Shown piece by piece: positions 4,640 through 57,525 of a stretch of DNA of 60,399 nt (position 1 is the first letter of the stretch; every line of letters begins with the position of its first letter). Position numbers and translations under genes: made by a program. The notes under the pieces were generated by a model, which saw nothing but the letters and a program-made list of their open reading frames with translations, did no database searches and had not been told where the DNA came from. The stretch is from Bacteroidales bacterium (GTDB lineage Bacteria > Bacteroidota > Bacteroidia > Bacteroidales > F082): positions 1-60,399 of the forward strand of contig JAZKYG010000020.1 in the NCBI GenBank assembly GCA_045612025.1, in the 5' to 3' direction.

Positions 4640-6232
4640 ATGAAAAAACAACCTCTGATGCCGTTAATATTTTCCATTATACTTGCTGTAGGCGTGATGT
4701 TCGGCATATATATAGCAAAATCTAATGGAATAGCCACTGCACCCAAAAACAGTGACGATCTTTCATATATCAACGATGTATTTTCTTTGATAGACAAAGA
4801 ATATGTCGATACTATAAACATCAAAGACCTTCAGATAAAAGCCGTCACTCATGTCCTTGAGTCGATGGATCCTCATAGCGAATATATCAAGCCTGAGGTA
4901 CTTGAAGAAGTCAACGACAACCTTCATGGCAGTTTCCACGGCATCGGAGTTTCATTCAGAATAGAGAAAGACACAATCACTATCATCAATACCATCAAAG
5001 GCGGTCCTTCTGAAAAAGTGGGAATACTCGCCGGCGACAGAATAGTGTATGTTGGTGACACCCTCGTCGCAGGAACGAAAGTCACAAACAAAGATGCGAT
5101 GCGTCTCCTCAAAGGTCCTAAGAAGACAAAGGTTGACGTCAAGATAAAACGTCGTGGCATTGATGAGCTGCTCGACTTCACCATCATCAGAGACGTGATA
5201 CCGACTCACAGCGTCGACGTGGCTTATATGATTGACGATAACATCGGTTTCATCAAGATGACAAAATTCTCTGCCACCACGCATAAGGAATTCGTCGAGG
5301 CAGTGAGAAAGCTTAAGTCGGAAGGCATGACACAGCTCATCCTAGACCTGAGAGACAACACCGGAGGTTATCTGGGAGAAGCAGTAGGCGTCGTTGATGA
5401 GATACTCACCGACAACAACTTAATCGTATATACCGAAGGTGAACATCGTGAGAGATCATATCTATTCTCACGTCACAGAGGCTTATGGGAAGACAAAGAT
5501 GTAGTCGTCCTCATCAATGAAGGTTCAGCCAGCGCAAGCGAGATCGTGGCAGGTGCTCTCCAAGATAACGACAGAGGCACCATCATCGGACGCCGTTCCT
5601 TCGGCAAAGGCCTAGTCCAAGAACAATTCGACCTTGGAGAAAACGGAGCATTACGTCTGACAGTAGCGCGCTACTACACCCCAACAGGTCGCTGCATACA
5701 AAAACCTTTCTCAGGTAATAAAGAAGAATATATGCTTGAAGAATACACACGTTATGCGACTGGTGAGATGTTTAATATCGACAGCATACACTTCGCCGAT
5801 TCGTTGAAATATATAACTCCTAAAGGTAAAGTAGTCTATGGCGGCGGTGGCATCATGCCTGACATTTATGTGCCTCTGGAAAACGACAGCACTCATTATT
5901 TCTTCAATAAGATGGCAAACAGCGGAATCTTGTTCCAATATGCTTTCGACTATGCCGACTCACACCGCAAGGAGATATTAAGTTATGGCAATGTTGAAAC
6001 ATTCAACGACAATTTCATCTTCACAGATGCTATGTTCAATGAATTGATGCGTCGTACAGAAGAAAAGAAAATCATCGGAAATGATGCCGATAAGGCTAAA
6101 GCCAGAGAACTCTCAGAACCATTGTTCAAGACATACGTGGCAAGAGACGTCTTCGGCGATGAAGCGTTTTATGTTCTTTACGAACCAATGGATGAGATAC
6201 TTCAGAAAGCCATTGAGGTGTTACAAGATTAA
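4640..6232 (+). CDS. Carboxy-terminal processing peptidase, family S41, with a PDZ domain
   Basis: N-terminal membrane anchor, a PDZ-like segment (GGPSEKVGILAGDRIVYVGD), and LDLRDNTGGY and GSASASEI motifs. Confidence 0.9.
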   Translation: MKKQPLMPLIFSIILAVGVMFGIYIAKSNGIATAPKNSDDLSYINDVFSLIDKEYVDTINIKDLQIKAVTHVLESMDPHSEYIKPEVLEEVNDNLHGSFHGIGVSFRIEKDTITIINTIKGGPSEKVGILAGDRIVYVGDTLVAGTKVTNKDAMRLLKGPKKTKVDVKIKRRGIDELLDFTIIRDVIPTHSVDVAYMIDDNIGFIKMTKFSATTHKEFVEAVRKLKSEGMTQLILDLRDNTGGYLGEAVGVVDEILTDNNLIVYTEGEHRERSYLFSRHRGLWEDKDVVVLINEGSASASEIVAGALQDNDRGTIIGRRSFGKGLVQEQFDLGENGALRLTVARYYTPTGRCIQKPFSGNKEEYMLEEYTRYATGEMFNIDSIHFADSLKYITPKGKVVYGGGGIMPDIYVPLENDSTHYFFNKMANSGILFQYAFDYADSHRKEILSYGNVETFNDNFIFTDAMFNELMRRTEEKKIIGNDADKAKARELSEPLFKTYVARDVFGDEAFYVLYEPMDEILQKAIEVLQD

Positions 6233-6315
6233 AATCTCAGAATCTCAGAACCTCAAAATCTCAGAAACTAGAATTTTGAGATTTTGAGGTTCTGAATTTT
6301 TGAATTCTAAAAAAA
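6233..6315. repeat. 8-nt period tandem array (AATCTCAG / AACCTCAA) followed by its inverted copy
   Basis: AATCTCAGAATCTCAGAACCTCAAAATCTCAGAAA is followed by the complementary array. The element fills the gap between the convergent protease and atpG genes. Confidence 0.9.
6245..6295. terminator. Bidirectional hairpin between convergent genes
   Basis: A perfect 19-bp stem (6245..6263 pairs with 6277..6295) with a 13-nt loop and A/T-rich flanks on both sides. Confidence 0.6.
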
Positions 6316-7197
6316 CTAAGATTCTTTCAAAGCATTCGCTCCGCTGATAATCTCAACGAGTTCGTTGGTGATAGCAGACTGACGTGCTTTGTTATACGAT
6401 ATATTAAGCTCTTTCAAGAGTTCTGTCGCATTGTCTGTCGCCTGTGTCATTGAAATCATACGAGCGCCTTGTTCTGAAGCGAAGCTATCCAACAATATCT
6501 TATAAACCTGTAGTTTAAGCGACTTCGGAATCATAACACTCAACAGTTCTTCCTTATTCGGTTGGTAAATATAATCAACCTCAGACTCGGACTGTTGTCT
6601 GTTGTCTGTTATCTGTTGACCAACAATTGGCAAAAACTGCTCCTTCACCAGCACCTGTGTCGCGGCGTTTTTAAACTGATTATATACAAATACTATCTTA
6701 TCGTATTTATTCTCATCGAAGTCTTTCATCAGACGCTCAGCAAAAGCAGCAGCGTTCTCGTATGTCAAGTCATCCAGCAAGACATTCTCGTTGCCGATGA
6801 CAGGATATTTCCTAAACTTAAGAGCATCTTCAACCTTAGAGCCGACACATAAAATGTCAACGCAATTATTATCAAATAATGTCTGATATTCGTCTTTGAT
6901 AAGGCTTATCGTCTCACGGATGACATTGGCGTTGAACGTACCACACAATCCCTTATTAGAAGATATCGAGACAATGAGAACCTTATTGGCCTTTGTCTGT
7001 TGTCTGTTGTCTGTTGTCTGTTGACCGTTTATCCTTTCAAGAATCTCGCTGAACTTCTCGGCATACGGGCGTAATGCCATGATGGCATTCTGCGACTTAC
7101 GCAGTTTGGATGCTGCCACCATCTTCATGGCACTCGTAATCTGCTTCGTCGAGTTGACAGATTCTATCCTCGTCCTGACTTCTTTTAAGTTGGCCAT
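6316..7197 (-). CDS. atpG: F-type ATP synthase gamma subunit
   Basis: MANLKEVRTRIESVNSTKQITSAMKMVAASKLRK, and NKARQSAITNELVEIISGA at the C-terminus. Confidence 0.95.
   Translation of the reverse strand: MANLKEVRTRIESVNSTKQITSAMKMVAASKLRKSQNAIMALRPYAEKFSEILERINGQQTTDNRQQTKANKVLIVSISSNKGLCGTFNANVIRETISLIKDEYQTLFDNNCVDILCVGSKVEDALKFRKYPVIGNENVLLDDLTYENAAAFAERLMKDFDENKYDKIVFVYNQFKNAATQVLVKEQFLPIVGQQITDNRQQSESEVDYIYQPNKEELLSVMIPKSLKLQVYKILLDSFASEQGARMISMTQATDNATELLKELNISYNKARQSAITNELVEIISGANALKES
6591..6620 (-). repeat. Heptamer tandem repeat (CAACAGA x4, degenerate) in frame inside atpG
   Basis: The coding strand GTCAACAGATAACAGACAACAGACAACAGT encodes GQQITDNRQQS. Confidence 0.9.
6994..7025 (-). 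repeat. Heptamer tandem repeat (CAACAGA x4.5) in frame inside atpG
   Basis: The coding strand GGTCAACAGACAACAGACAACAGACAACAGACA encodes GQQTTDNRQQT. Confidence 0.9.
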
Positions 7198-11573: not shown

Positions 11574-12218
11574 ATGGCAAAGAACAAATATTATGTGGTC
11601 TGGAACGGCAGACAGATAGGGATTTACAGCAATTGGGACTCTTGCAGAATGCAGATCGAGGGTTTCAAAGGCGCGCAATATAAATCATTCCCGGACAGGG
11701 CAAGTGCAGAGCAGGCCTTCAAAGACGGTTACGCCGCTTCATGTCAGCAGTCAACAGACAACGGACAGCAGACAACGGCTAAGTCTTATGAAAGTCTTCC
11801 AGAAAATCAGAGACCTATAGGTCAAAGCATCGCCGTCGATGCTGCTTGTTCCGGCAATCCAGGCAAGATGGAGTTTCAAGGTGTTTTTGTAGAGACAAGC
11901 ACTCACCTCTTCAAGAGTCCTGTCTACGAACAAGGCACCAACAATATCGGAGAGTTCCTCGCCATAGTTTATTGCCTGGCATGGCAGAAGAAAAACAAGC
12001 TCAACTATCCCATCTACTCCGACTCCGTCAATGCGCAGAAATGGGTAAGAGAAGGTGCGTGCAAGACAAAGATTACAGAAAACGAACACAACAAAGCTCT
12101 CTTTGAAGTCATACGATGGGCAGAGAAATGGCTGCATACAAACAGCTTCAGAGTTCCTATCTACAAATGGAGGACAGAGATTTGGGGAGAAATACCTGCT
12201 GACTTCGGAAGAAAATAA
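11574..12218 (+). CDS. rnhA: Ribonuclease H1-type enzyme with an N-terminal hybrid-binding (viroplasmin-like) domain
   Basis: N-terminal KYYVVWNGRQIGIYSNWDSCRMQIEGFKGAQYKSF. The RNase H core has AVDAACSGNPG, GTNNIGEFLAI and IYSDSVNA. Confidence 0.9.
   Translation: MAKNKYYVVWNGRQIGIYSNWDSCRMQIEGFKGAQYKSFPDRASAEQAFKDGYAASCQQSTDNGQQTTAKSYESLPENQRPIGQSIAVDAACSGNPGKMEFQGVFVETSTHLFKSPVYEQGTNNIGEFLAIVYCLAWQKKNKLNYPIYSDSVNAQKWVREGACKTKITENEHNKALFEVIRWAEKWLHTNSFRVPIYKWRTEIWGEIPADFGRK
11745..11780 (+). repeat. Heptamer-family repeat in frame in the rnhA inter-domain linker
   Basis: CAGCAGTCAACAGACAACGGACAGCAGACAACGGCT encodes QQSTDNGQQTTA. Confidence 0.85.
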
Positions 12219-13000: not shown

Positions 13001-13081
13001 GGTTGAGCTGTTGAGTTACTAAGTTACTGAGTTGCTAAGTTGGTGAGATAGGTCATAGAAACTTAGTAACTCAGCAACTTA
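13001..13081. repeat. 8-nt period array (GTTACTAA/GTTACTGA/GTTGCTAA) with an inverted copy
   Basis: Hairpin arms 13020..13041 and 13060..13081 match at about 20 of 22 positions. The right arm overlaps the tcdA stop codon. Confidence 0.85.
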
Positions 13082-13792
13082 GTGTCTTAATATAGAATTT
13101 ATCACATGTGATGCACAGAAGCATCCGAATATTGCTGGCATATATGATATTGTGCCGACAGTCGCAATCTTGTTTTCTGTGGCTTCTTCTATCGATACTG
13201 CACTTTCCGCGACTTTCTCAGGCGAGAATACTACAGTGATGCCTTCGCGTATTCCAAGTCGGTGCAATCGTTTTCTTATATAAAATGCCAGACGACAGTT
13301 ATGTGATTTTGAGATGTCGTCAATCTCTATCTTTGTAGGGTCGAACTTACCGCCCGCGCCCATGCAGCTGATGATGTTCTGTTTGTTTTGGACTGCATAA
13401 TATAAAAGGAACACCTTAGGCGCCAGTGTGTCGATAGCATCGACGACGAAGTCGAATTTCTGCTCCATCAAGTCGATGATTGGCTGATCTTTAAGATATT
13501 GGTTTATGGCAACGACTTCGACGTCAGGGTTGATGTCGCGTATACGTTCTGCCATCACCTCTACTTTAGGACGACCGAGTGTGCTGTCAAGAGCCAGCAG
13601 CTGTCTGTTTTTGTTAGTCACATTAACTATGTCGCAGTCGACGATGGTGAGTTTTCCTATTCCAGCACGCGCAAGCTGTTCAGCAGCATACGCGCCAACG
13701 CCACCAAGTCCCACGACGAGGACATGGCTATTCGCTAACTTCTTAACGCCTTCTTCTCCAACTAACAACTGTGTTCTTGAATTCCAATTCAT
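13079..13792 (-). CDS. tcdA: tRNA threonylcarbamoyladenosine dehydratase (ThiF/E1-like family)
   Basis: Rossmann motif VLVVGLGGVGAYAAEQLARAGIGKLTIVDCD. Confidence 0.85.
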   Translation of the reverse strand: MNWNSRTQLLVGEEGVKKLANSHVLVVGLGGVGAYAAEQLARAGIGKLTIVDCDIVNVTNKNRQLLALDSTLGRPKVEVMAERIRDINPDVEVVAINQYLKDQPIIDLMEQKFDFVVDAIDTLAPKVFLLYYAVQNKQNIISCMGAGGKFDPTKIEIDDISKSHNCRLAFYIRKRLHRLGIREGITVVFSPEKVAESAVSIEEATENKIATVGTISYMPAIFGCFCASHVINSILRH

Positions 13793-14472
13793 ATCTGTCC
13801 AAAAATTTTTACAAAGTTATTAAAAATATCGTTGCGCAGTTTATCCATTTCGATGCCGGATAAAAGGGCTGCTTTCTCATAGACGTCGGTAATCTTTCTC
13901 TCCGCGACATCGGTCTCAAGGAACAGTTTATCTGTCGGGATGAGTTTCAGCAGCTGTTTCGCTCTAGCCTCATTCTTAAACAAGATATCGCCTAAGGAAA
14001 GGCAGATATCATATTTCAGCAGCTGCCCTGCCGACTGCTCATTGCCTTGGAAACCATGGATTATCCAGGCCTGCTTCGCCTTTGTTTCCTTCCTTATAGA
14101 GATGATATCAGGATACGTTCTCACCGCATGAATTATCAGAGGTTTCGCAGTTTGTTCTGACAACTCTATCTGTTTTATGAAAACCTCCTTCTGGATTTCA
14201 AAGTCAACGCCACAAACCCTGTCAAGTCCGCATTCACCTATAGCGAGAAAATTCAAATCACCAAGACACCGAGACACCAAATCTCCAAGTTCCTCAATTC
14301 CTGAGTTCCTCAATTCCTCAGATCCGACTTTCCACGGATGTACTCCAATGCTATAAAAATGAGAAACATCGACATTGACGATATTGTCAACATCGATGTT
14401 TTGTATCTCAACAAACTCATTATTATCAATATGATTGTTAAAATGAGTATGAATATTTACGAAAGGACTCAT
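13789..14472 (-). CDS. TatD-family metal-dependent hydrolase
   Basis: NIHTH at the N-terminus, AIGECGLD, IIHAVR and ETD. It overlaps tcdA by 4 nt. Confidence 0.85.
   Translation of the reverse strand: MSPFVNIHTHFNNHIDNNEFVEIQNIDVDNIVNVDVSHFYSIGVHPWKVGSEELRNSGIEELGDLVSRCLGDLNFLAIGECGLDRVCGVDFEIQKEVFIKQIELSEQTAKPLIIHAVRTYPDIISIRKETKAKQAWIIHGFQGNEQSAGQLLKYDICLSLGDILFKNEARAKQLLKLIPTDKLFLETDVAERKITDVYEKAALLSGIEMDKLRNDIFNNFVKIFGQI
14285..14322 (-). repeat. GAGGAAYT-type short tandem repeat inside the TatD-family CDS
   Basis: The coding strand GAGGAATTGAGGAACTCAGGAATTGAGGAACTTGG encodes EELRNSGIEELG. It resembles the GGAGTTAGGAATTAGG array at 48889..48918. Confidence 0.7.
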
Positions 14473-16912: not shown

Positions 16913-19210
16913 ATGAATATCAAGAAATATATAACTCTATTTTGCTTAATATTTTTTAGCATTATATCATACGCACAAAAAACCATTCATGAATGGACTA
17001 CTCACGTCCCTGGTTCTAAAGTCATTAACGTTGAGAAAGTCAATGATATAATATATGCCGCAACGCCATACGAGATTTTCTATTACAACACTGGCGACAA
17101 CTCCATAAACAAACTCACTAAAGTCAACGGCTTATCCGATTTCGGCATCAACGTGATGCGCTATAATCCTCATACTGATATGATTTTCATTGGATATTCC
17201 AACGCAAACATCGACATCATCGATAAAGACGGAAACATCATTAACATCAGTGATATCAAAAATAAAAATATCTTAGTTGACAAAAACATCAATGACGTCT
17301 ATTTCATTGAAGACAAAGCCTATCTCAGCTGCGGCTTCGGCATCGTACTTGTCGACCTTAACAGAATGGAGATAAAAGAGACTTACATTATCGGCGGGAA
17401 CGGTTCTTATCTAAATATCAACGACATAACTTTATATAACGGCAAATTATATGCTGCAACAAGCAATGGCATCTATTATGCCGACTACGACAATGACAAC
17501 CTCGTAGATTTTTCTCAATGGACACACGACAAGACCGTCATCCATAAAAACTTAAATTATTCTGAAATTGAGACCTTTAACAATCTATTGATTACAAACT
17601 ACTCAAGAAACGAATACAACACCGACACATTATTCGTATATGATGGAGAGAAATGGGATTATCACCAATACTCACCGCCTTCTATAAAAAGAAGCATCAG
17701 AGCATATGATGACAGACTTGTGCTTTCCAACAACTACTCAATCGTCGCGTTGGATGTAAACAACGATTTAATTGCACAATCATATAACAGCAACATCGAG
17801 CCTTTCGACTGTATCTATGATGAAAGCGACGATGCATATTGGATTGCAAACAAAACCAACAGCATATACAAACTAATCCCTACAGTTTCTTGCAATCCTA
17901 TAATTTTCAACGGACCATACAGCAATTACGTCTTTGAATTAAAGGCAAGCGGCGATCAGTTGTGGGTTGCACCTGGAGGATATTCCAGCGTATGGGCTAA
18001 GAACTGGATGAAAGATGGCGTGTTTTATTATGTAAATAACAAATGGCATAATATAAATCGCACTAATACAGAAGCCTTTGACACTATATCAGATATCGTT
18101 TCCATCGCCATAGATCCTATAAACAACTCAAAAGTATATGTCGGTTCATTCCACAAAGGCATACTTGAATTCGAGGATTTTGAGTTAAAAAACATTTACG
18201 ATACAAAGAACAGCAGCCTTGGAGAATTGAGCGGCTACGGTTACGTATATATCACCGGCATGGACTTCGACAGCAAGAACAACTTATGGATTGCAAACAG
18301 CAGCACCGAAAACATGCTGTCGGTCAAGACAACCAAAAACGAATGGTACTCATTTAACATAGGTTCTACCAACGTCAGCAAGATATTGGTTGACAACAAC
18401 AATTACAAATGGATTTTAAATCGTGATGGAAATCTGATCGTTTACAACGACAAAAACACTATTTCTAATTCCTACGATGACGAATACAAAATCATCAGCA
18501 CTACAAAAGGACAAGGCGGACTTCCAGAAGCTGCAAACTGCATGGCAATAGATAAAGACGGAACCGTATGGATTGGCACTAACGATGGTCTGGCACAGTT
18601 CTACTCAACATCAAAGATATTCAGACAAGGCACAAACTACGACGCATCAAGAATACTAGTTCCAAGAAACGATGGCTCCGGACAAGCCGACTATCTTCTC
18701 TCAGGAGAATCTGTACTTTCAATTTGCGTTGATGACGCCAATAACTTATGGGTTGGAACAAGAAACGGCGCTTTCTATATCTCCAACAACGGACTCACTG
18801 AATATCACCATTTCACACAAGACAACAGCCCTTTGCTCTCAAATACCATCAACGACATTGCTATCAACAAAGACGGCGACATTTTCTTTGGCACCGACAA
18901 AGGCATCATCTCGTTAAGAGGCAGAGCCACAGAGGGCAAGACAACGAACTCCGATGTGATAGTATATCCAAATCCTGTAAGACAAAATTATTCTGGTCTT
19001 GTCGGTATCAAGAACCTTGTCGCCAACTCATTGGTAAAGATTACTACCGTTGACGGTTCTTTCGTGACGCACCTCCGCTCTGAAGGAGGACAGGCCGTTT
19101 GGGATTGCACTACCATCAATGGCGATAAAGTCGCACCTGGCATATATCTCATCTTCGTCACTGACGAAAACGGCAAAGAGACATTCGCTACAAAAATACT
19201 TATAATGTAA
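16913..19210 (+). CDS. Double beta-propeller protein with a T9SS C-terminal domain; PorZ-like
   Basis: A signal peptide, repeated Reg_prop-like blades (NGLSD..., WIGT.DGL, WVGTRNG), and the C-terminal sorting domain VYPNPV...GIYLIFV. The PorZ identification is tentative. Confidence 0.75.
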   Translation: MNIKKYITLFCLIFFSIISYAQKTIHEWTTHVPGSKVINVEKVNDIIYAATPYEIFYYNTGDNSINKLTKVNGLSDFGINVMRYNPHTDMIFIGYSNANIDIIDKDGNIINISDIKNKNILVDKNINDVYFIEDKAYLSCGFGIVLVDLNRMEIKETYIIGGNGSYLNINDITLYNGKLYAATSNGIYYADYDNDNLVDFSQWTHDKTVIHKNLNYSEIETFNNLLITNYSRNEYNTDTLFVYDGEKWDYHQYSPPSIKRSIRAYDDRLVLSNNYSIVALDVNNDLIAQSYNSNIEPFDCIYDESDDAYWIANKTNSIYKLIPTVSCNPIIFNGPYSNYVFELKASGDQLWVAPGGYSSVWAKNWMKDGVFYYVNNKWHNINRTNTEAFDTISDIVSIAIDPINNSKVYVGSFHKGILEFEDFELKNIYDTKNSSLGELSGYGYVYITGMDFDSKNNLWIANSSTENMLSVKTTKNEWYSFNIGSTNVSKILVDNNNYKWILNRDGNLIVYNDKNTISNSYDDEYKIISTTKGQGGLPEAANCMAIDKDGTVWIGTNDGLAQFYSTSKIFRQGTNYDASRILVPRNDGSGQADYLLSGESVLSICVDDANNLWVGTRNGAFYISNNGLTEYHHFTQDNSPLLSNTINDIAINKDGDIFFGTDKGIISLRGRATEGKTTNSDVIVYPNPVRQNYSGLVGIKNLVANSLVKITTVDGSFVTHLRSEGGQAVWDCTTINGDKVAPGIYLIFVTDENGKETFATKILIM

Positions 19211-19944
19211 TGGCGAAAACAACAAGCAAAACGAGAGCCATTGTACTTCAATCCATAAAATATGGAGATAGCAGCCTTGTTGTCAAGATGTTGACAGAAG
19301 AGCTAGGCATTCAGTCGTATATGGTGAAAGGAGTCTTCGGCAAGAAGTCGAAGATGAAAGCTGCTCTTTTTCAGAATATGACATTACTTGAGATTGTGGC
19401 TGACACCAGCAGTAACAGCCTCGGTTTTATCAGAGAGATATCCTTATCACATTATTACCAAAGCATCGCCACCGACATAAAGAAGTCGACCATCATAATA
19501 TTCGTCAGCGAGTTATTATCCAAAGCCATCAGCGAAAGTGAGAGTGATACGGAACTCTTCAATTTCATTTACGACTCTATGTTATGGCTCGATGAAGCCA
19601 CTTCTGATTACGCAAACTTTCCTATAGCCTTCGCACTGAGGTTAAGCAGATACTTAGGATTCTTTCCTAACATCAACACTTATACAGATGGTTCCTGTTT
19701 TGATTTGTTAGACGGAAATTTCAAGATGACGCAGAACGACATCCATCAGATCGATGAAGAAATAAGCAGACATTTCTATGAACTCTGCAAAGCGTCAATG
19801 AAATCCCACCAACAGAATTTGGCAATCAACAATAACATCCGACGTAAATTATTGGACGCTATTGTAACGTATTACAAGTTCCATGCTGACAACGTTAAAG
19901 ATATCAAATCGTATGAGATTTTAAGGACACTCCTTGATGCATAG
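19210..19944 (+). CDS. recO: DNA repair protein RecO
   Basis: The N-terminal OB fold TRAIVLQSIKYGDSSLVVKMLTEELGIQSYMVKG. Its ATG overlaps the upstream stop (TAATG). Confidence 0.85.
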   Translation: MAKTTSKTRAIVLQSIKYGDSSLVVKMLTEELGIQSYMVKGVFGKKSKMKAALFQNMTLLEIVADTSSNSLGFIREISLSHYYQSIATDIKKSTIIIFVSELLSKAISESESDTELFNFIYDSMLWLDEATSDYANFPIAFALRLSRYLGFFPNINTYTDGSCFDLLDGNFKMTQNDIHQIDEEISRHFYELCKASMKSHQQNLAINNNIRRKLLDAIVTYYKFHADNVKDIKSYEILRTLLDA

Positions 19945-19955
19945 TTTTTTAGGGA

Positions 19956-19988
19956 CTCAGAAATTCAGAATCTCAGAATCTCAAAAAT
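19956..19988. repeat. 8-nt period TCAGAAWT/TCTCAGAA array
   Basis: CTCAGAAATTCAGAATCTCAGAATCTCAAAAAT belongs to the same family as 6233..6315 and 41397..41466. Confidence 0.8.
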
Positions 19989-29520: not shown

Positions 29521-29550
29521 TGCACAATGCATAATTCATAATGCATAATT
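29521..29550. repeat. CATAATK heptamer array
   Basis: TGCACAATGCATAATTCATAATGCATAATT. Confidence 0.85.
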
Positions 29551-38287: not shown

Positions 38288-39127
38288 ATGATAAAAATAA
38301 CAGATAAATCTGGATTGATACTCGAAGGTGGAGGCATGAGAGGTGTCTTCACCTCCGGAGTATTGGACTGTTTCATGGACAATGGGATACGTTTCCCTTA
38401 CACAATAGGCGTCAGCGCCGGCGCATGCAACGGTCTGTCTTACATCTCAAACCAAAGAGGCAGAGCCAAGTTCAGCAACATCGATTTGCTGGAACAATAT
38501 AATTACATCGGAATAAAACACCTCTTGAAGAAAGGCAATATCATGGATTTTGACTTGCTGTTCCACACCTTCCCTAACGAAATCATTCCATACGACTACG
38601 AACGATTGGCAAATTATGAAGGTCATTACGAGATGGTTACAACGAGTTGTAAGACCGGCAAAGCCTGTTATTTTGAAGAAAAGAAAAATCCTGAGAGAGT
38701 CATTGACATTGTGAAGGCCTCAAGCAGCCTTCCTTTCGTATGCCCTATATCATACGTCGACGGCGAACCAATGTTAGACGGCGGCATCGCCAGTTCCATT
38801 CCAATCATGCGGGCAAGAGAGTTGGGCTACGACAACAACGTCGTGGTTCTCACTCGCAACAGAGGATATCGCAAGACAGAGAAAGACATGAAGTACGTTT
38901 CTCTGTTCTACAAGAAATATCCTGCGATGCAAGAAGCTATCAGAAATCGCAACAGAATATACAATGAAGAAATAAGTCTAATTGAAAGGCTGGAAGACGC
39001 TGGAGAAATCATCGTCATCCGCCCTCAGAAACCAATAGAAGTCGACAGAATGGAACGCGACAGCAAGAAACTGATCGCACTATACGAAGAAGGATATAAT
39101 CTGGCAATGAGAACTTTAGAATTTTAG
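38288..39127 (+). CDS. Patatin-like phospholipase
   Basis: GGGMRG oxyanion motif, GVSAGA nucleophile elbow, and DGG. Confidence 0.88.
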   Translation: MIKITDKSGLILEGGGMRGVFTSGVLDCFMDNGIRFPYTIGVSAGACNGLSYISNQRGRAKFSNIDLLEQYNYIGIKHLLKKGNIMDFDLLFHTFPNEIIPYDYERLANYEGHYEMVTTSCKTGKACYFEEKKNPERVIDIVKASSSLPFVCPISYVDGEPMLDGGIASSIPIMRARELGYDNNVVVLTRNRGYRKTEKDMKYVSLFYKKYPAMQEAIRNRNRIYNEEISLIERLEDAGEIIVIRPQKPIEVDRMERDSKKLIALYEEGYNLAMRTLEF

Positions 39128-39185
39128 AACTTTAGAACTTTAAAACTTTAGAATTCTAGAGTTTTAGAGTTTTAGAGTTCTAAAA
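39110..39185. repeat. 8-nt period AGAACTTT/AGAGTTTT arrays in inverted orientation around GAATTC
   Basis: The left array begins inside the patatin CDS and encodes its last residues, RTLEF*. The two arms match at about 28 of 33 positions and could form a long hairpin spanning 39124..39185. Confidence 0.9.
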
Positions 39186-39674
39186 TCAAACTGTCACCAA
39201 CAGCATCGCCTCGATATCTTTTTCAAGACGACTCGGTTTGACAGTAGGCGCATAACGTTTTATCTTTCTGCCATCTGGAGAGATGAGAAACTTGGTAAAG
39301 TTCCATTTGATGTCATCGCCCAAGATGTTTTTCGTCTTTTCTTTTAAAAACGTATATATAGGCGAAGCATTCTCGCCATTCACGTCAATCTTCTTCATCA
39401 TCTGAAATGTCACGCCATAGTTGACCTGGCAGAAATTACTTATCTCCTCATCGCTCCATGGATCCTGTTGTGCAAACTGATTGCAAGGAAATCCCAAGAT
39501 GACGAGACCTTTATCTCTATACTTTTTATTCAACTCTTCGAGACCAGCGAACTGAGGTGTGAAGCCACACTTGCTTGCGGTATTAACAATCAACAAAACC
39601 TTGCCTCTGAATTGATTGAAATCCAACTCTTTTCCGTTTGAAGTCAGGGCCTTAAAGTCATATATCGTACTCAT
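39186..39674 (-). CDS. Glutathione peroxidase (Cys type)
   Basis: NTASKCGFTPQ and LGFPCNQF motifs. Confidence 0.92.
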   Translation of the reverse strand: MSTIYDFKALTSNGKELDFNQFRGKVLLIVNTASKCGFTPQFAGLEELNKKYRDKGLVILGFPCNQFAQQDPWSDEEISNFCQVNYGVTFQMMKKIDVNGENASPIYTFLKEKTKNILGDDIKWNFTKFLISPDGRKIKRYAPTVKPSRLEKDIEAMLLVTV

Positions 39675-39761: not shown

Positions 39762-41396
39762 ATGGATAAGTCAGTATTTCAAGTAAGCGGACAAATCGTC
39801 GATGTGATAAATTCCCGTATTTTCAAAGGAACTGTATTTGTTGAAAACGGTAAGATTGTCGATATTATAGAAAAAGATAATGACAGCAATCAGATCATAA
39901 TGCCAGGTCTTGTCGATTCTCATATCCACATCGAAAGCTCGTTACTTGTACCAACCGAGTTTGCCCGACTCGCCTCCGTCCATGGCACTGTCGCTACTGT
40001 CAGCGACCCTCACGAGATAGCCAATGTCTTAGGAATCGAAGGCGTGAAATACATGATAGAGACAGGAAAGAAATCCCCTATGAAATTCTACTTCGGAGCT
40101 CCGAGCTGCGTGCCTGCCACATCATTCGAGACATCAGGCGCTGTCTTGGATTCCAAGGCTGTCGACGAACTTCTTTCCATAGACGACATAAAATATCTCG
40201 GCGAGATGATGAATTATCCTGGCGTCATCTTCGAGGATGAAGAAGTCATCAAAAAGATAGAGTCAGCGAAACGACATAACAAACCTATCGACGGACACGC
40301 TCCGCTTCTAAGCGGCAACGATTTGATAAAATATTGCAGCACAGGAATAACGACAGACCACGAATGCTCTAACATTCAAGAAGCTCGTGAGAAAATAGCT
40401 CTAGGAATGAGAATACAGATTCGTGAGGGCAGCGCTGCAAAAAACTTCAACGCTCTCATTCCTTTAATAAAAGAACGTCCTGATAAGATTATGTTCTGTT
40501 CTGATGATATGCATCCTCACGAATTTATCAACGGTCATATCGACAGACTCATAACAAAAGCCATATCATTAGGTTATGACACCTTAGATGTCATAAAAGC
40601 CGCTACATTGAATCCAGTAAGGCATTATAATCTCGAAGTCGGACTATTACAGAAAAACGATCCAGCCGACTTTATCATTATCGACAACTTCAAAGATTTC
40701 AATGTCTTAAAGACTTATATCGACGGAAATTTAGTGGCTGAAAATTACAAGTCGCTGATACCAGTTCACGAAGTTGAGAACACAAATAACTTCGCTGCAG
40801 AGAAAGTCCTGATTAAAGATTTCAGAATTGCTGACGAAGGAAAAGACATCAAGATCATCAATGCTATAAGCGGAGAGATTCTGACAGAAAGACTCATCGG
40901 CAGAGCAAAAAGCGTCAATAACAACCTGGTGAGCGATGTTGATAACGACATACTTAAGATAGCCGTCATAAACCGTTATGAGAAAAAGAAAATCGCTTTA
41001 GGCTTCATCAAGAATTTTGGTTTGAAGAAAGGAGCGATTGCTTCAAGTGTAGCACACGACAGCCATAACATCGTTGTTATCGGATGCAGCGATGAGGAAT
41101 TGACAAGAGCTGCTAATATGATTATCAAATCGAAAGGAGGACTGGTAACATGGAGCTACGATCAACACAAATGCATTCCGCTTCCTATCGCAGGTCTTAT
41201 GACAAATCAAAACGGATATAAGATTGCCGGCGACTACCGTATGCTCGTCGCCTTGGCACATGAGTTCGGTTCGACACTCAACGACCCATTCATGACGATG
41301 GGATTCATGTCATTGCTCGTGATACCAAAACTGAAACTCAGCGACAAAGGACTCTTCGACTGCGAGAAATTCGAACTCACAACACTATTTGAATAA
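39762..41396 (+). CDS. ade: Adenine deaminase
   Basis: PGLVDSHIHIESS, an amidohydrolase fold, and a size of 544 aa. Confidence 0.88.
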   Translation: MDKSVFQVSGQIVDVINSRIFKGTVFVENGKIVDIIEKDNDSNQIIMPGLVDSHIHIESSLLVPTEFARLASVHGTVATVSDPHEIANVLGIEGVKYMIETGKKSPMKFYFGAPSCVPATSFETSGAVLDSKAVDELLSIDDIKYLGEMMNYPGVIFEDEEVIKKIESAKRHNKPIDGHAPLLSGNDLIKYCSTGITTDHECSNIQEAREKIALGMRIQIREGSAAKNFNALIPLIKERPDKIMFCSDDMHPHEFINGHIDRLITKAISLGYDTLDVIKAATLNPVRHYNLEVGLLQKNDPADFIIIDNFKDFNVLKTYIDGNLVAENYKSLIPVHEVENTNNFAAEKVLIKDFRIADEGKDIKIINAISGEILTERLIGRAKSVNNNLVSDVDNDILKIAVINRYEKKKIALGFIKNFGLKKGAIASSVAHDSHNIVVIGCSDEELTRAANMIIKSKGGLVTWSYDQHKCIPLPIAGLMTNQNGYKIAGDYRMLVALAHEFGSTLNDPFMTMGFMSLLVIPKLKLSDKGLFDCEKFELTTLFE

Positions 41397-41466
41397 AATT
41401 CAAAACCTCAGAAATTCAAAACCTCAGAATATTTTGAGTTTTTGAATTTTTGAATTTCTAAAATAA
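41397..41466. repeat. AATTCAAAACCTCAGA arrays with an inverted copy
   Basis: AAATTCAAAACCTCAGAAATTCAAAACCTCAGAAT is followed by ATTTTGAGTTTTTGAATTTTTGAATTTCT. The element lies between convergent genes. Confidence 0.85.
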
Positions 41467-43205: not shown

Positions 43206-43239
43206 GAAAAAGGCAAAAGGCAAAAGGCAAAAGACAAAA
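43206..43239. repeat. AGGCAAA heptamer array
   Basis: AAAAAGGCAAAAGGCAAAAGGCAAAAGACAAAAG. A related tract lies at 46476..46505. Confidence 0.85.
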
Positions 43240-43312
43240 GATTTTTTTGCCAACGCCTAATTAATGAGACGCATCAATGTTTGTTTATTTTTATCGTATC
43301 ATTGATACGTCT

Positions 43313-44026
43313 CTACAAATCATTCCTTACTCCTAATTTATCAAAAGTAAATCCTCTTTCCACATAATATTCAAGGACTTTTGTAAGTGCTGGAATCATA
43401 TTGTTTACTGCTTTTTCGCTGTCGTGAAAGACGATGATACTTCCGTCGTCGGCATTTTTTATCACATTATTAAAACAATCCTCCTGACTTAAAGACTTAT
43501 CCCAATCGTAAGATATCACAGTCCAAGCCACTATTTTAAATTCTGGAATTCTAGAACTCTCGAACTTTAGAAGTTCAGATTTATCTTTAATTTCTAAACT
43601 TCTGAGGTTCTGAGATTTTGAATTTCTGAGCTTTTTAATCAATCTGATTTGTGATGATTTGATCCTTCCATGAGGCGGACGGAAAAGAGGCGATTGTATC
43701 AAAGCGTCGGCTTGTTCTACGGAATTTATGTAATCTTTGGTTTTTGTCTTCCATCCTCTTTCGTGATTGAAAGTATGATTTCCGACGGCATGACCTTCAT
43801 TCTTAATCAGTTCGAAAGTATCTTTATATTTATTAACATTATTGCCGATGCAGAAGAAAGTCGCTTTAGCGTTAAATTTCTTTAAGATTTCAAGAACCTG
43901 CGGAGTTATAGTTGGATGCGGACCGTCATCGAAAGTGAGGTAAAGTTTTTTCTCACCCTTAGGCATTTCCCAAAGAAATGAAGGATAGAACAGTCTTAAT
44001 ATTTTCGGAGTCGTGATGAGGCGCAT
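43313..44026 (-). CDS. Polysaccharide deacetylase (NodB/CE4 family) carrying an in-frame repeat insertion
   Basis: TFDDGP, HAVGNHTFNH and LFRPPHG motifs. Its ATG lies 2 nt after the stop of the upstream kinase gene. Confidence 0.88.
   Translation of the reverse strand: MRLITTPKILRLFYPSFLWEMPKGEKKLYLTFDDGPHPTITPQVLEILKKFNAKATFFCIGNNVNKYKDTFELIKNEGHAVGNHTFNHERGWKTKTKDYINSVEQADALIQSPLFRPPHGRIKSSQIRLIKKLRNSKSQNLRSLEIKDKSELLKFESSRIPEFKIVAWTVISYDWDKSLSQEDCFNNVIKNADDGSIIVFHDSEKAVNNMIPALTKVLEYYVERGFTFDKLGVRNDL
43538..43627 (-). repeat. Intergenic-type repeat (TTCTGAG/GAACTTTAG/TCTAGAAC families) embedded in frame in the NodB CDS
   Basis: The plus strand reads ...TTCTAGAACTCTCGAACTTTAGAAGTTCAG...TTCTGAGGTTCTGAGATTTTGAATTTCTGAG. 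It encodes RNSKSQNLRSLEIKDKSELLKFESSRIPEF, between the RPPHG motif and the VAW..DW motif. Confidence 0.85.
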
Positions 44027-44028
44027 AA

Positions 44029-44967
44029 TCAGTTCAATAAATTTAACCTATTTGTGATAATGTCTTTATATGCAATTTTCATTTCATCTGGTAAGAAAGA
44101 AATATCTATAAAGTCGAACCATTTATCTTTTACTTTCAAGAATTTATTAAAAATATTTCCAATAACTTTTTCTTCTAATTCCGACGCCCGCATTGAAATT
44201 TCAAAATCCGATTTTCTAATTTTACGCTTCTTTCCATTCAATGTAAGAGCAAGTTCCTCAATGTCTTCAGGCATAACCAAAGCCGTTGACAACATATCAT
44301 AAGCCGGTGTAAGATTATATAGATGATCGACTTTACTATACAAAGAAAAATTTTTCAGATGCATATCTGCATTACCTGTTATCCATGAAAAAACAACTTG
44401 TTCCCAATAGTTTACTAAATCCAATTTGGGAACAGATGAATATTTTTGTATGACTTTTGCAATTTGTTCATACGAGCCTTTGTACTTATGTTCCGTCAAA
44501 CGTTCTGTAAGCTGACACATATCTTCCATTGCCAATTTTTCACCATTTTCAGTACGATCTATACGTCGTGTTATATAACAAAGTTCACCATCTGAAAACC
44601 GAATCAAACTATGAGGAACAACTTGGATTTTCGCTATTTCAGCTAAATGCATAGTTAAATCCTCTAATTCAGGAAGATTTGCAAAACGTTCCGTCTGAGG
44701 TTTTAGAATATACCTTCCCCACAAACCAACAATTGTGAATCTCTCTGCCTCATTACGACCGCTTTTTTTTATATCCAAAGACAATTTTGCTTGTACGCCT
44801 GTTAATGTCGTTTGGCTACGCACAACCTGTCTTGCAAGTTCGGTAAGATTGTCTCGAGTATAAGGCAACTCTGGAGCTGTTGTTGCACCGAATATTTTTC
44901 TCGAACAAGAACTATGAAAATCTATCTCATTATCAGCAAGCTCTTTATAACAAAACAAACATTTCAT
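44029..44967 (-). CDS. HipA-family Ser/Thr kinase core (HipT-like toxin) with an N-terminal CxxC zinc-ribbon-like segment
   Basis: CLFCYKELADNEIDFHSSC, the Gly-rich loop TLTGVQAKLSL, the catalytic motif GNADMHLKNFS, and TPAYDMLS. Confidence 0.85.
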   Translation of the reverse strand: MKCLFCYKELADNEIDFHSSCSRKIFGATTAPELPYTRDNLTELARQVVRSQTTLTGVQAKLSLDIKKSGRNEAERFTIVGLWGRYILKPQTERFANLPELEDLTMHLAEIAKIQVVPHSLIRFSDGELCYITRRIDRTENGEKLAMEDMCQLTERLTEHKYKGSYEQIAKVIQKYSSVPKLDLVNYWEQVVFSWITGNADMHLKNFSLYSKVDHLYNLTPAYDMLSTALVMPEDIEELALTLNGKKRKIRKSDFEISMRASELEEKVIGNIFNKFLKVKDKWFDFIDISFLPDEMKIAYKDIITNRLNLLN

Positions 44968-44968
44968 A

Positions 44969-45298
44969 CTACTTCTCCTCATTATTTATAAGTTCAACAC
45001 CAACAGCACCAATACAATCTTTACAACATGCCACTAACAACGACATTCTATCACGAGCATCTATTTTCCAATTATTTTCAGCTATATCCAACAACCAGCC
45101 TTCTGGAATAAGTCCGTCAAAAAAGGGGAAAAGAACTTTTTCATTATACGGTTTTTCCGTCAATGGCAATGTTAAACTTATAGCTTCAGCTTTAGTTGAA
45201 TAAAGAAAATTCAAATCATACTGAAATGTATACCCATTCTCATCCTCGGTAAGAATTCCAGCTTTTTCACCTCGTAAAAAAACGGTAGCTTGTTTCAT
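44969..45298 (-). CDS. HipA N-terminal-subdomain-like protein (HipS-like)
   Basis: 109 aa, with VFLRGEKAGILTEDENGYTFQYD...PFFDGLIPEGW, which resembles the N-terminal subdomain of full-length HipA. Its stop lies 1 nt from the kinase ATG. Confidence 0.75.
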   Translation of the reverse strand: MKQATVFLRGEKAGILTEDENGYTFQYDLNFLYSTKAEAISLTLPLTEKPYNEKVLFPFFDGLIPEGWLLDIAENNWKIDARDRMSLLVACCKDCIGAVGVELINNEEK

Positions 45299-46351: not shown

Positions 46352-46423
46352 TACCCCCACCGGGAATCGAACCCAGATTTAAAGTTTAGGAAACTTTCGT
46401 TCTATCCGTTGAACTATAGGGGC
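46352..46423 (-). tRNA. tRNA-Arg (anticodon CCU)
   Basis: I folded the reverse complement GCCCCTATAGTTCAACGGATAGAACGAAAGTTTCCTAAACTTTAAATCTGGGTTCGATTCCCGGTGGGGGTA by hand into a cloverleaf. The anticodon stem is AAAGT/ACTTT, the loop is TTCCTAA, the T-loop is TTCGATT, and no CCA is encoded. Confidence 0.85.
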
Positions 46424-46430
46424 ATTTTTA

Positions 46431-46505
46431 ATTCATAATTCATAATGCATAATGCATAATTGAAATGAATAATTACCTTTAGACTTTGGACTTTTGCCTT
46501 TAGCC
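46431..46505. repeat. CATAATK heptamer array followed by an AGGCAAA-family tract
   Basis: ATTCATAATTCATAATGCATAATGCATAATTG, then CCTTTAGACTTTGGACTTTTGCCTTTAGCC. Confidence 0.8.
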
Positions 46506-48943: not shown

Positions 48944-49432
48944 ATGAAACATTTAGAAAAGATTTACGATAAGATTTTAAACAAGGAATCTATTGAAGAG
49001 AAGTTGAATTTGTGGCGTAAGGAAGGAAAAACGATAGTCTTTTCAAACGGATGCTTCGATATTTTGCATCGCGGTCATGTTGAATATCTTTCTAAAGCAG
49101 CAGACCTTGGCGATGTGTTGATAATCGGTTTAAACACAGATGCTTCAGTAAAAAGAATCAAAGGTCCATCACGACCAGTCAATGATGAAAAAGCACGCGC
49201 TGTAGTGCTGGCAGCACTTGAATTTGTCGATGCAATAATGTTTTTTGAGGAAGACACTCCTTATGATTTAATCAAATACGTACAACCTGACATACTTGTC
49301 AAAGGCAAAGATTACAAAGCAGAAGACATCGTCGGTTACGACATCGTTACTAACAAAGGTGGAAAAGTAGAGACAATAGAATTAGTTGAAGGGTTTTCTA
49401 CGACGAAAACGATTGAGAAAATGAAATGGTAA
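48944..49432 (+). CDS. D-glycero-beta-D-manno-heptose-1-phosphate adenylyltransferase-like cytidylyltransferase (RfaE domain II type)
   Basis: [32 protein letters not shown] and ILVKGKDY. Confidence 0.85.
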
Positions 49433-49497: not shown

Positions 49498-49717
49498 TAG
49501 TCCCGTTAGGGACGATAGTTTCCAGGCAGGTATGAAGAGCGTAGCTCGGAATGCCTGCATAAAGATCGGATTTGATAAGAGTGCCGAAGGTACGACAGAA
49601 AAATCAAACTCAATTCTGTCGCACCTTCGGCGCTTTGATTAATTTTTAAACCTGTTTGCAGGGATTTCGCGCTTTGCGCTTCATCACCTGCCTATGAACT
49701 GCCGCTCCTACGGAGCT
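49498..49717 (+). ncRNA. Candidate structured RNA or long imperfect palindrome with 6S-like architecture; identity unproven
   Basis: A GC-richer tract. The terminal stem (49580..49597 with 49615..49632) has 16 Watson-Crick pairs and 1 G.U. An internal A/U-rich bubble follows, and then outer arms at 49524..49558 and 49656..49691, and 49498..49513 and 49700..49717. The G.U asymmetry favours the + strand. Confidence 0.3.
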
Positions 49718-49896: not shown

Positions 49897-50463
49897 TTAT
49901 ACTAATATTCCTTGCATGCTTCCCGAGCCCTGGACTTGCAGCCCTTTTGCTGAAACGCCTCTTAGCATGGCGGAGCCGCCAATTCGGCAGTCTTCCAGGT
50001 CCGAGTCCATAATTTTGGCCCAGTCCGATATTATAGACTCTCCGTGTACGTCCGTTTGGCCTTCTATCTCCGGCCGTCCGAATGCTTTAGAGTGCTCGCG
50101 CACTTTCGCGAAGCCCTTTATCTGAGCTACGCCACCTATTGTCGCGTTATCCATGACCTGGGCGTTTCCGAATATCGTCGCTTCGCAAGCTATTGTCGCC
50201 TTCCCGCGTACTATCGCGTTCCCGTATACCGCCGCAGAGTCGTACACCGTCGCGTTATCCAGGACCCTCGCGTTATCCAGGACCCTCGCGTTCCCATATA
50301 CCGCAGCTTCTCCGCCTACCCAGCAGCCGCCTTCGTGGGACAGATTGCTCTCGTTCTCAATGTAGCCGCCAAGTTCATTTGTTGACGTGCTTTTTATTCT
50401 GTAGACCTTAGTCTTGAATAGTCCCACCTCTTTAAAGTCTTCTTTTATTATCTCGTATTTCAT
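49897..50463 (-). CDS. Beta-helix (hexapeptide-like) repeat protein of unknown function; probably acquired horizontally
   Basis: Repeats VYGNARVLDNARVLDNATVYDSAAVYGNAIVRGKATI...FGNAQVMDNATIGGVAQI. A strong AGGAGG site (50474..50479) lies 10 nt before ATG 50463. The gene is visibly GC-richer than its neighbours. Confidence 0.65.
   Translation of the reverse strand: MKYEIIKEDFKEVGLFKTKVYRIKSTSTNELGGYIENESNLSHEGGCWVGGEAAVYGNARVLDNARVLDNATVYDSAAVYGNAIVRGKATIACEATIFGNAQVMDNATIGGVAQIKGFAKVREHSKAFGRPEIEGQTDVHGESIISDWAKIMDSDLEDCRIGGSAMLRGVSAKGLQVQGSGSMQGILV
50251..50286 (-). repeat. Perfect 18-bp tandem duplication inside the beta-helix CDS
   Basis: CGCGTTATCCAGGACCCT occurs twice, duplicating one NARVLD hexapeptide turn. 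Confidence 0.95.
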
Positions 50464-57490: not shown

Positions 57491-57525
57491 TTAATTCACA
57501 ATGCATATTTCATAATGCATAATTA
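57491..57525. repeat. CATAATK-family repeat
   Basis: TTAATTCACAATGCATATTTCATAATGCATAATTA. It overlaps the stop codon of the downstream beta-helix gene. Confidence 0.8.

Follow-up and report, generated by a model that had tools for sequence, protein, structure and literature searches.

Long simple sequence repeats (SSRs) with units of 5-11 nt, among which heptamers dominate, are abundant in scattered prokaryote lineages (Mrazek 2007, as summarized in PMC4679880): TAACTGA arrays occur in Beggiatoaceae, in cyanobacteria and in a few Bacteroidetes (PMC4679880), and Xanthomonas carries arrays of a GGGNATC heptamer, including some termed 'tandemly inverted repeats' (PMC4692102). Rickettsia palindromic elements (RPEs) are stretches of palindromic DNA that lie in frame within conserved metabolic genes and encode an extra peptide at a position compatible with the fold (PMC10969869). 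Here we analyse a 93-nt segment built of octanucleotide units that lies in frame within the gene of a CE4/NodB polysaccharide deacetylase, in a 60,399-nt stretch of the genome of a Bacteroidales bacterium (contig JAZKYG010000020.1, positions 1 to 60,399; hereafter the window). RPEs form discrete families of about 150 bp that are present in many copies and are conserved both in sequence and in the peptide they encode; contingency loci, as found in Haemophilus, Neisseria and Helicobacter, bring about phase variation through intragenic repeats.

By comparing the deacetylase with its orthologs, the alleles at the insert site with one another, and the units of the insert with the other repeats of the window, we conclude that the segment is probably an octanucleotide tandem array joined to an inverted array, resident at its locus, read as an in-frame loop, and a member of the class of 7-8-nt repeats that characterizes this lineage. 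We propose that a CTCAGAAT-like octamer array on the sense strand resides at the site and is continued by an inverted array whose units are of the same family, and that the insert belongs with the abundant 7-8-nt repeats of this Bacteroidales lineage, which appear as hairpins at convergent gene ends, as arrays beside promoters and as protein loops. The alleles show that the array gains and loses whole 8-nt units, with the reading frame filtering the outcome mostly to 0, 3, 6, 9, 12 or 15 units plus rare frameshifts. The array could have been seeded by duplication of the native octamer TTCCAAAT, which is itself unit-like and to which the terminal units of arrays are closest, or by copying from another array. 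Fast-changing short repeats are written into the proteins of this lineage, and are tolerated there.

An in-frame insertion in a conserved deacetylase

The product of the host gene matches Pfam PF01522 (Polysacc_deac_1, E 4e-28) and CE4 structures in the PDB (down to 7e-28), the top solved relatives being peptidoglycan N-acetylglucosamine deacetylases. The catalytic motifs of CE4 enzymes are of the types TFDDG, H(S/T)xxH, RPPxG, DxxDW and IVLxHD; here they read TFDDGP, HTFNH, RPPHG, YDWD and IVFHD, and all are invariant in the family alignments (A1, A3). Around the insert the protein reads ...LFRPPHGRIKSSQIRLIKK-LRNSKSQNLRSLEIKDKSELLKFESSRIPEF-KIVAWTVISYDWD, the extra segment LRNSKSQNLRSLEIKDKSELLKFESSRIPEF standing after RPPHG and before the (I/V)AW...DWD motif.

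An earlier note on this DNA had placed an in-frame repeat of about 90 nt at 43538-43627, and the boundaries given in Table 1 extend it only slightly. Tandem Repeats Finder detects two period-8 arrays within it, at 43539-43572 (4.2 copies) and 43600-43630 (3.9 copies), and the insert folds as a long imperfect hairpin. The plus strand folds at -33.2 to -33.9 kcal/mol (z score -3.5 to -5.6), and the mRNA strand at -23.1 to -26.5 kcal/mol (z -2.1 to -3.5); the insert is thus palindromic and forms a long hairpin, as do RPEs and MITEs (transposable elements of the miniature inverted-repeat type). The same note proposed that the units are shared with intergenic hairpins, and this is borne out: 62 9-mer matches of the insert fall in the five intergenic array loci of Table 1, far beyond chance; 4893 random segments of 105 nt had 0.68 such matches on average and never more than 12. 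In such AT-rich DNA the overall count of 9-mer matches between insert and window is unremarkable, being equalled or exceeded by 7.8% of random segments; only the concentration at the array loci is significant. The unit family of the 5' arm also makes direct arrays in orthologs (L002, L005, L006 and L089).

Two sets of orthologs were examined: a close set, the best 120 of thousands of protein relatives (74-98% identical, from metagenome assemblies, some of them named 'Bacteroidales bacterium'), and a distant set of 80 Bacteroidota orthologs among the matches listed (38-49% identity), used as outgroups. Length variation across the close set is confined almost wholly to the insert site. Twenty close orthologs are empty there, with 14 residues from RPPHGR to (I/V)(V/I)AW and the reading ...IRNLKKDFQ, continuing as LKKDFQIVAW, and a distant Bacteroidota ortholog reads LKKEFKIVMW at the same place. 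From the G of RPPHG to the W, 78 of the 80 distant orthologs have 17-24 residues (mode 18) and the window has 47; in the alignment with PDB 5o6y, 5 residues stand opposite query residues 129-161 (33 here). Because close alleles, distant orthologs and the solved structure all have the short loop, the empty state is, as judged from these alignments, the canonical and ancestral one.

The segment is therefore a real in-frame insertion in the loop that joins the helix after motif 3 to the motif-4 strand, within a conserved protein whose orthologs include insert-free forms. The expectations that the two motifs are normally close together and that the insertion is kept as an extra loop thus both stand, and the open reading frame (ORF) is intact with its five motifs kept. 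An assembly artefact or a pseudogene is ruled out, the insert being present in more than 100 independent assemblies. In structure prediction, proposed in the earlier note as a check, two AlphaFold2 runs on shallow alignments (mean predicted local distance difference test, pLDDT, 53 and 62) place helix, insert and strand in that order, but confidence is low at residues 121-176 (pLDDT 31-53 in 10-residue blocks). From the alignment with CE4 structures and from fold topology, we infer that the loop would be exposed at the surface, as an alpha-to-beta connection away from the catalytic face.

Insertions in this same loop are also seen in orthologs from Pedobacter (L014) and Hufsiella (L020), where no repeats are visible. 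In the ortholog of the flavobacterium Gelidibacter gilvus (L069 6001-6705), the arrays (TTCCAAA)n and (AATCGTA)n, both of 7-nt units, lie in frame in another loop, just before LFRPPYG.

The allele series and its reading frame

About 120 close alleles were surveyed, and DNA was fetched for nine loci. In one clade the segment between the motifs is 14, 22, 30, 38, 46 or 54 residues long, equivalent to 0, 3, 6, 9, 12 and 15 added octamers, which encode LRISESQN-type repeats; the window's own clade shows a parallel series of 21, 29 and 43 residues. In the fetched DNA, L001 has the empty site; the array of L002, about 15-16 units long (AATCTCAG/AACTCAGA), is purely direct and lacks an inverted arm, and it includes four perfect units in a run; L004, L005 and L006 have shorter direct arrays; L003, L091 and L092 have the inverted (right) arm alone; and L008 shares with the window the possession of both arms. 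The 3' arm of the window recurs unchanged in L008 and L090. On a tree of the flanking protein, segment lengths are interleaved among close relatives.

A search with the N-terminal 128 residues brought out alleles that are out of frame. Three truncated proteins, P0127 (...KSSLGL), P0124 (...NHRLDCYFLRLG) and P0132, have tails that are out-of-frame translations of the downstream gene, and they amount to about 3 in about 120 N-terminal matches. At the DNA level, L093 carries +56 nt (7 units) and L094 +88 nt (11 units), with the downstream frame intact in both (KIVAWTVISYDWD...; KIVAWTVISYDWDKSL...). A scan of metagenomes with a DNA pattern, independent of ORFs, recovered four contigs, all in frame and too small a sample to give a frequency of out-of-frame alleles; three allele types occur in one metagenome.

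Judged from these sequences, the array changes by single 8-nt units, and since 3 does not divide 8 and an open frame is selected, mostly three-unit steps (24 nt, 8 residues) survive. With short units arranged head to tail and whole-unit copy-number polymorphism among close relatives, the allele spectrum is, on this comparison of alleles, the behaviour of a simple sequence repeat that slips by 8 nt at a time, with the reading frame acting as a filter.

The units differ in what they permit. No cyclic triplet of the sense unit CTCAGAAT is a stop codon, and therefore all three frames give the same hydrophilic cycle of eight residues, a peptide of LRNSESQN type. The inverted unit carries TGA, TAA or TAG, and a perfect inverted array of at least three units would necessarily, given the unit's sequence, place one stop in frame. 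The inverted arm of the window has one open frame only: its sole unit with positions 3-5 in frame reads GAG, and the other three units that keep T at position 3 read TGA, TAA and TAG, all out of frame. The GAG-bearing arm is common to hairpin-type alleles and to right-arm-only alleles in other backgrounds, which argues that the inverted arm arose once.

Alleles of the window's type are constant in length in 13 of 13 clade members. With diverged units and one length throughout its clade, the window allele is now probably a stable extra loop, close to neutral, and not an active switch or a terminator. Amino-acid diversity is 5.2% in the insert and 3.9% in the core, a small excess only, and faster protein evolution of the insert was rejected as a claim on the strength of so weak a difference.

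Repeats elsewhere in the window and its relatives

Hairpins and arrays built of octamers stand at five further places in the window (Table 1), all of them between convergent genes. Three of these hairpins had been noted previously, at 6233..6315, 39110..39185 and 41397..41466, and were found within a few nucleotides of those positions.

Table 1. Positions of the insert, its parts, its host gene and the intergenic octamer loci in the window.
Feature	Position	Strand	Remarks
CE4/NodB polysaccharide deacetylase gene, host of the insert	43313..44026	-	intact ORF, 237 residues
In-frame insert LRNSKSQNLRSLEIKDKSELLKFESSRIPEF	43538..43630	-	93 nt; 29 residues over the empty allele
mRNA-5' arm, five sense octamers CTCAGAAA TTCAAAAT CTCAGAAC CTCAGAAG TTTAGAAA	43590..43629	-	
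Hairpin loop, about 10 nt, approximately TTAAAGATAA on the mRNA strand	43580..43589	-	from folds
mRNA-3' arm, inverted octamers TCTGAACT TCTAAAGT TCGAGAGT TCTAGAAT TCCAGAAT	43538..43579	-	
Hairpin of AATCTCAG units	6231..6312	.	between convergent 4640..6232 (+) and 6316..7197 (-); -38.2 kcal/mol, z -7.6
Hairpin of AGTTACTA/AACTCAGC units	13006..13090	.	between convergent genes; -40.7 kcal/mol, z -6.8
Direct array ACTCAGAA x4, without inverted arm	19955..19987	.	after the stop of 19210..19944
Hairpin of AACTTTAG units	39107..39186	.	between convergent Patatin and GSHPx genes
Hairpin of AAATTCAAAACCTCAG units	41396..41464	.	between convergent amidohydrolase and Big_5 genes

At orthologous sites the sequence of the units depends on the strain and complementarity is kept. 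At the Patatin/GSHPx site, L095 has one more unit, L006 and L096 have units that are wholly different, and L007 lacks the hairpin; the amidohydrolase/Big_5 hairpin is remodelled in L095, L006, L007 and L001, yet a hairpin is present in each. Intrinsic (Rho-independent) terminators consist of a G+C-rich stem followed by a U-tract. Here the hairpin stems are AT-rich, the insert hairpin is followed by UUUAAAAUAG, without a U-tract, and a terminator consensus scan of 36-46 kb made no call at 39107-39186, 41396-41464 or 43538-43630; a terminator-like role for the repeat hairpins at convergent gene ends is possible. In an Rfam 15 scan of the window no hairpin matched a family, the sole match being a tRNA at 46352-46423.

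Short-period arrays are over-represented in the window as a whole: against third-order Markov simulations there are 13 period-7 arrays where 1.6 are expected, and 10 arrays of period 8, 16 or 24 where about 2.1 are expected. Twelve of the 21 stronger arrays are intergenic. Per 10 kb, 3.5 arrays are present in the window and 0.69 in a sample of 846 kb drawn from 80 other Bacteroidota, of which a few are array-rich too. Heptamer classes recur at unrelated loci, with 8 identical pairs against 0.16 expected and at most 3 in any of 5000 simulations; between-locus copying or a strong sequence bias must exist.

Coding sequences other than the deacetylase are also affected. In atpG (6316..7197, minus strand), (TTGTCTG)n and its rotation, at 6592-6618 and 6993-7023, encode QQTTDNRQQ in two loops, and across 120 close orthologs of ATP synthase gamma both array loops vary, largely in 7-residue steps (286, 293, 300 and 307 residues). 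Orthologs of this protein show additional SKSESV-type repeats. An RNase H gene (11574..12218, plus strand; NCBIfam NF046109-like, with a score under the family cutoff) has (CAGACAA)n, of the atpG unit class, at 11748-11776, encoding QQSTDNGQQTT in a linker. A TatD-family gene (13789..14472, minus strand) contains the octamer arrays CACCAAGA and TTCCTCAA at 14259-14320, with 16 nt repeated perfectly, which encode SEELRNSGIEELGDLVSRCLGDL. A clean insertion is ruled out in this last case, there being no net gain of length relative to solved TatD proteins; the repeats seem to have taken the place of a native helix segment without extending the protein. Longer tandem repeats within ORFs, at 50246-50292 (18 nt x2.6, 96%) and 21002-21053 (27 nt x1.9, 92%), have units that are multiples of three.

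Arrays also lie beside promoters and in other short spacers. Upstream of the Big_5 gene, a Bacteroidetes-type TAnnTTTG box (TATCTTTGCA) has a 7-nt direct array at 43208-43240 immediately on its 5' side. The unit of this array depends on the strain, being CTTTTGC in the window and CTGTTGT, CTTGTAGT or CTTTAGT in relatives (L001-L007, L095, L096), and (CTGTTGT)n occurs in strains whose deacetylase is 94-97% identical to that of the window, which has (CTTTTGC)n; this suggests rapid concerted turnover of units beside the promoter. Arrays of the TAATGCA/ATAATGC class, at 29517-29549, 57492-57523 and 46429-46474 (the last mixed with TAATTCA), lie in short gaps between co-directional genes, just upstream of starts or beside a tRNA. 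In the gap after the ORF 48944..49432, an inverted repeat at 49572-49642 (29-nt arms, 83% complementary, 13-nt spacer) is richer in G+C and unlike the AT-rich repeat hairpins.

The neighbourhood of the deacetylase gene is itself variable. On its 5' side it is abutted, across a 2-nt gap, by a hipBA-like module (HTH, Couple_hipA, HipA_C; window 44029-45298 and upstream), which is present or absent depending on the strain (L005, L093, L095 and L096 versus L003, L006 and L007); in L095 and L096, integrase-bearing phage-like islands also adjoin the module. The 3' end of the gene and the spacer downstream (window 43241-43312) differ from those of L095, L002 and L005. A GAGACG...CGTCTC hairpin lies 3' of the gene in the window and in L007; in other strains this place is occupied by (TAGGAGT)n or (GCTCACA)n arrays, which extend into the C-terminal codons, and the C-termini of the deacetylase (KLGVRN, ELGVGG...) are variable for this reason.

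Competing explanations and known systems

Several observations weigh against a locally grown array. The same unit classes stand at unrelated loci to an extent beyond slippage alone, AATCTCAG for instance being found both in the 6233 hairpin and in coding arrays of relatives. The identical 34-nt right arm in different backgrounds fits a single insertion followed by recombination equally well, and the alleles would fit more than one order of origin for the empty, direct and hairpin states. The frameshifted alleles are few and all come from short-read metagenome assemblies, and with models of low confidence at residues 121-176, exposure of the loop depends on the alignment with solved CE4 enzymes and on fold topology.

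Of the alternatives to a locus-resident array, the one that fares best supposes that a pre-formed hairpin of about 90 nt, of the intergenic type, was transposed whole into the gene in the manner of an RPE or a MITE and came to lie in frame by chance; we consider this unlikely. The insert is palindromic and has units in common with the intergenic hairpins, but many alleles at the site are direct-only and lack a palindrome, lengths shift by whole 8-nt units, and the intergenic hairpins do not repeat a single sequence and vary between strains at orthologous sites. Presence or absence is polymorphic with a clean empty site, as a mobile element would leave it; terminal inverted repeats and a target-site duplication are, however, not separable from the repeat structure, the flanks AAATTC...AAATTTC (L008) and the native site GATTTCCAAATC being unit-like and a duplication indistinguishable from the array. 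The same right arm recurs in divergent allele backgrounds, and the recurrence of unit classes between loci implies some spread, but there is no second copy of the insert: exact matches elsewhere are at most 15 nt long, and the 34-nt arm occurs only at this gene site (next best 28/34) in 990 kb made up of the window and the fetched loci, with about 60 kb from this genome and about 125 kb from close relatives. Precedent exists in the in-frame palindromic insertions of Rickettsia (PMC10969869). Of the invading palindrome that the earlier note likened to those elements, the palindromic and in-frame character stood; a discrete mobile element did not, in the face of non-palindromic alleles, the lack of separable element ends and the missing second copy, and the terminator-type label found no support in the consensus scan or in Rfam.

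A contingency locus, in which the array is kept because a change of one unit reversibly switches the deacetylase OFF and ON, is improbable. It would account for a unit length that is not a multiple of 3, for the 7- and 11-unit alleles whose downstream coding sequence is undecayed, and for relatives such as L002 with four perfect units in a run; the rarity of OFF alleles, the four metagenome contigs all in frame, and the diverged units and fixed length of the window allele tell against it. The array moreover sits in mid-gene in a conserved enzyme rather than in a surface antigen, and similar arrays occur in ATP synthase gamma, a protein for which a switch would hardly bring a benefit. In relatives with long, near-perfect arrays, phase variation is possible.

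A more speculative proposal, to which we give similarly little credence, is that in this lineage an active process, not described to date, writes a small set of 7-8-nt units into unrelated intergenic and coding loci. The recurrence of unit classes and the paired inverted arrays go beyond slippage alone, and candidate processes would be templated repeat addition at both 3' ends of a DNA break or ectopic copying of array seeds; the former could explain the hairpin architecture, [unit]n-[inverted unit]n, since templated addition at both 3' ends would yield such a layout. If so, the deacetylase insert, the convergent-end hairpins and the ATP synthase gamma loops would be footprints of one mechanism and not of ordinary slippage.

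Least probable is a selected function of the segment itself, whether as an adaptive loop (an interaction surface, for example) or as an mRNA hairpin acting in attenuation, stability or translation within the hipBA-deacetylase-Big_5 string: the constant length of the hairpin-type allele in its clade, a peptide little more variable than the core and a fold stabler than that of shuffled sequence speak for it, but close relatives lack the insert or have unrelated lengths, the antisense strand has the stronger fold, the mRNA hairpin is weaker than the intergenic ones (-23 versus -21 to -41 kcal/mol) and has more mismatches, the U-tract is missing and the terminator scan silent, and the structure models are of low confidence in the insert region.

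The natural series of 0, 3, 6, 9, 12 and 15 units, together with the out-of-frame alleles of 7 and 11, shows non-triplet repeats entering conserved enzymes, being filtered by the frame and making loops of variable length, in a lineage where gene ends, promoters and protein loops are all shaped by arrays of 7-8-nt units. Terminators of Bacteroidales are poorly defined. The locus raises the questions of where the units come from and how they spread, whether the hairpins serve as bidirectional terminators in Bacteroidales, and whether arrays act as ON/OFF switches; in practice, such arrays will mislead gene callers, length filters for orthologs and strain typing when Bacteroidales genomes are assembled from metagenomes.

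Our literature search turned up neither an account of hairpins built of octamers at convergent gene ends nor one of 7-8-nt arrays lying in frame within Bacteroidales enzymes. Contingency loci resemble the deacetylase array in having an intragenic tandem repeat with a unit length not divisible by 3, such that a unit change shifts the frame and out-of-frame alleles retain an intact downstream sequence; unlike them, the array has an 8-nt unit, lies in mid-gene in a conserved and probably non-surface enzyme, and has rare OFF alleles, with a window allele that is degenerate and stable. The parallel with RPEs is an analogy of outcome only: in contrast to those elements, the deacetylase insert has no second copy in the sampled DNA, the number of its 8-nt units varies, and many of its alleles are non-palindromic. 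The likeness to long SSRs (the short tandemly repeated repetitive, or STRR, sequences of cyanobacteria, the Xanthomonas arrays and TAACTGA) lies in head-to-tail units of 7-8 nt, mostly intergenic positions, a sporadic distribution among lineages and variable copy number, and the TAATGCA-class arrays of the window are like the TAACTGA arrays found upstream of start codons in other phyla (PMC4679880). By contrast with those known SSRs, the units here are AT-rich octamers and heptamers of many classes, long hairpins stand systematically at convergent gene ends, and arrays lie in frame inside conserved enzymes, where they form an allele series in steps of three units.

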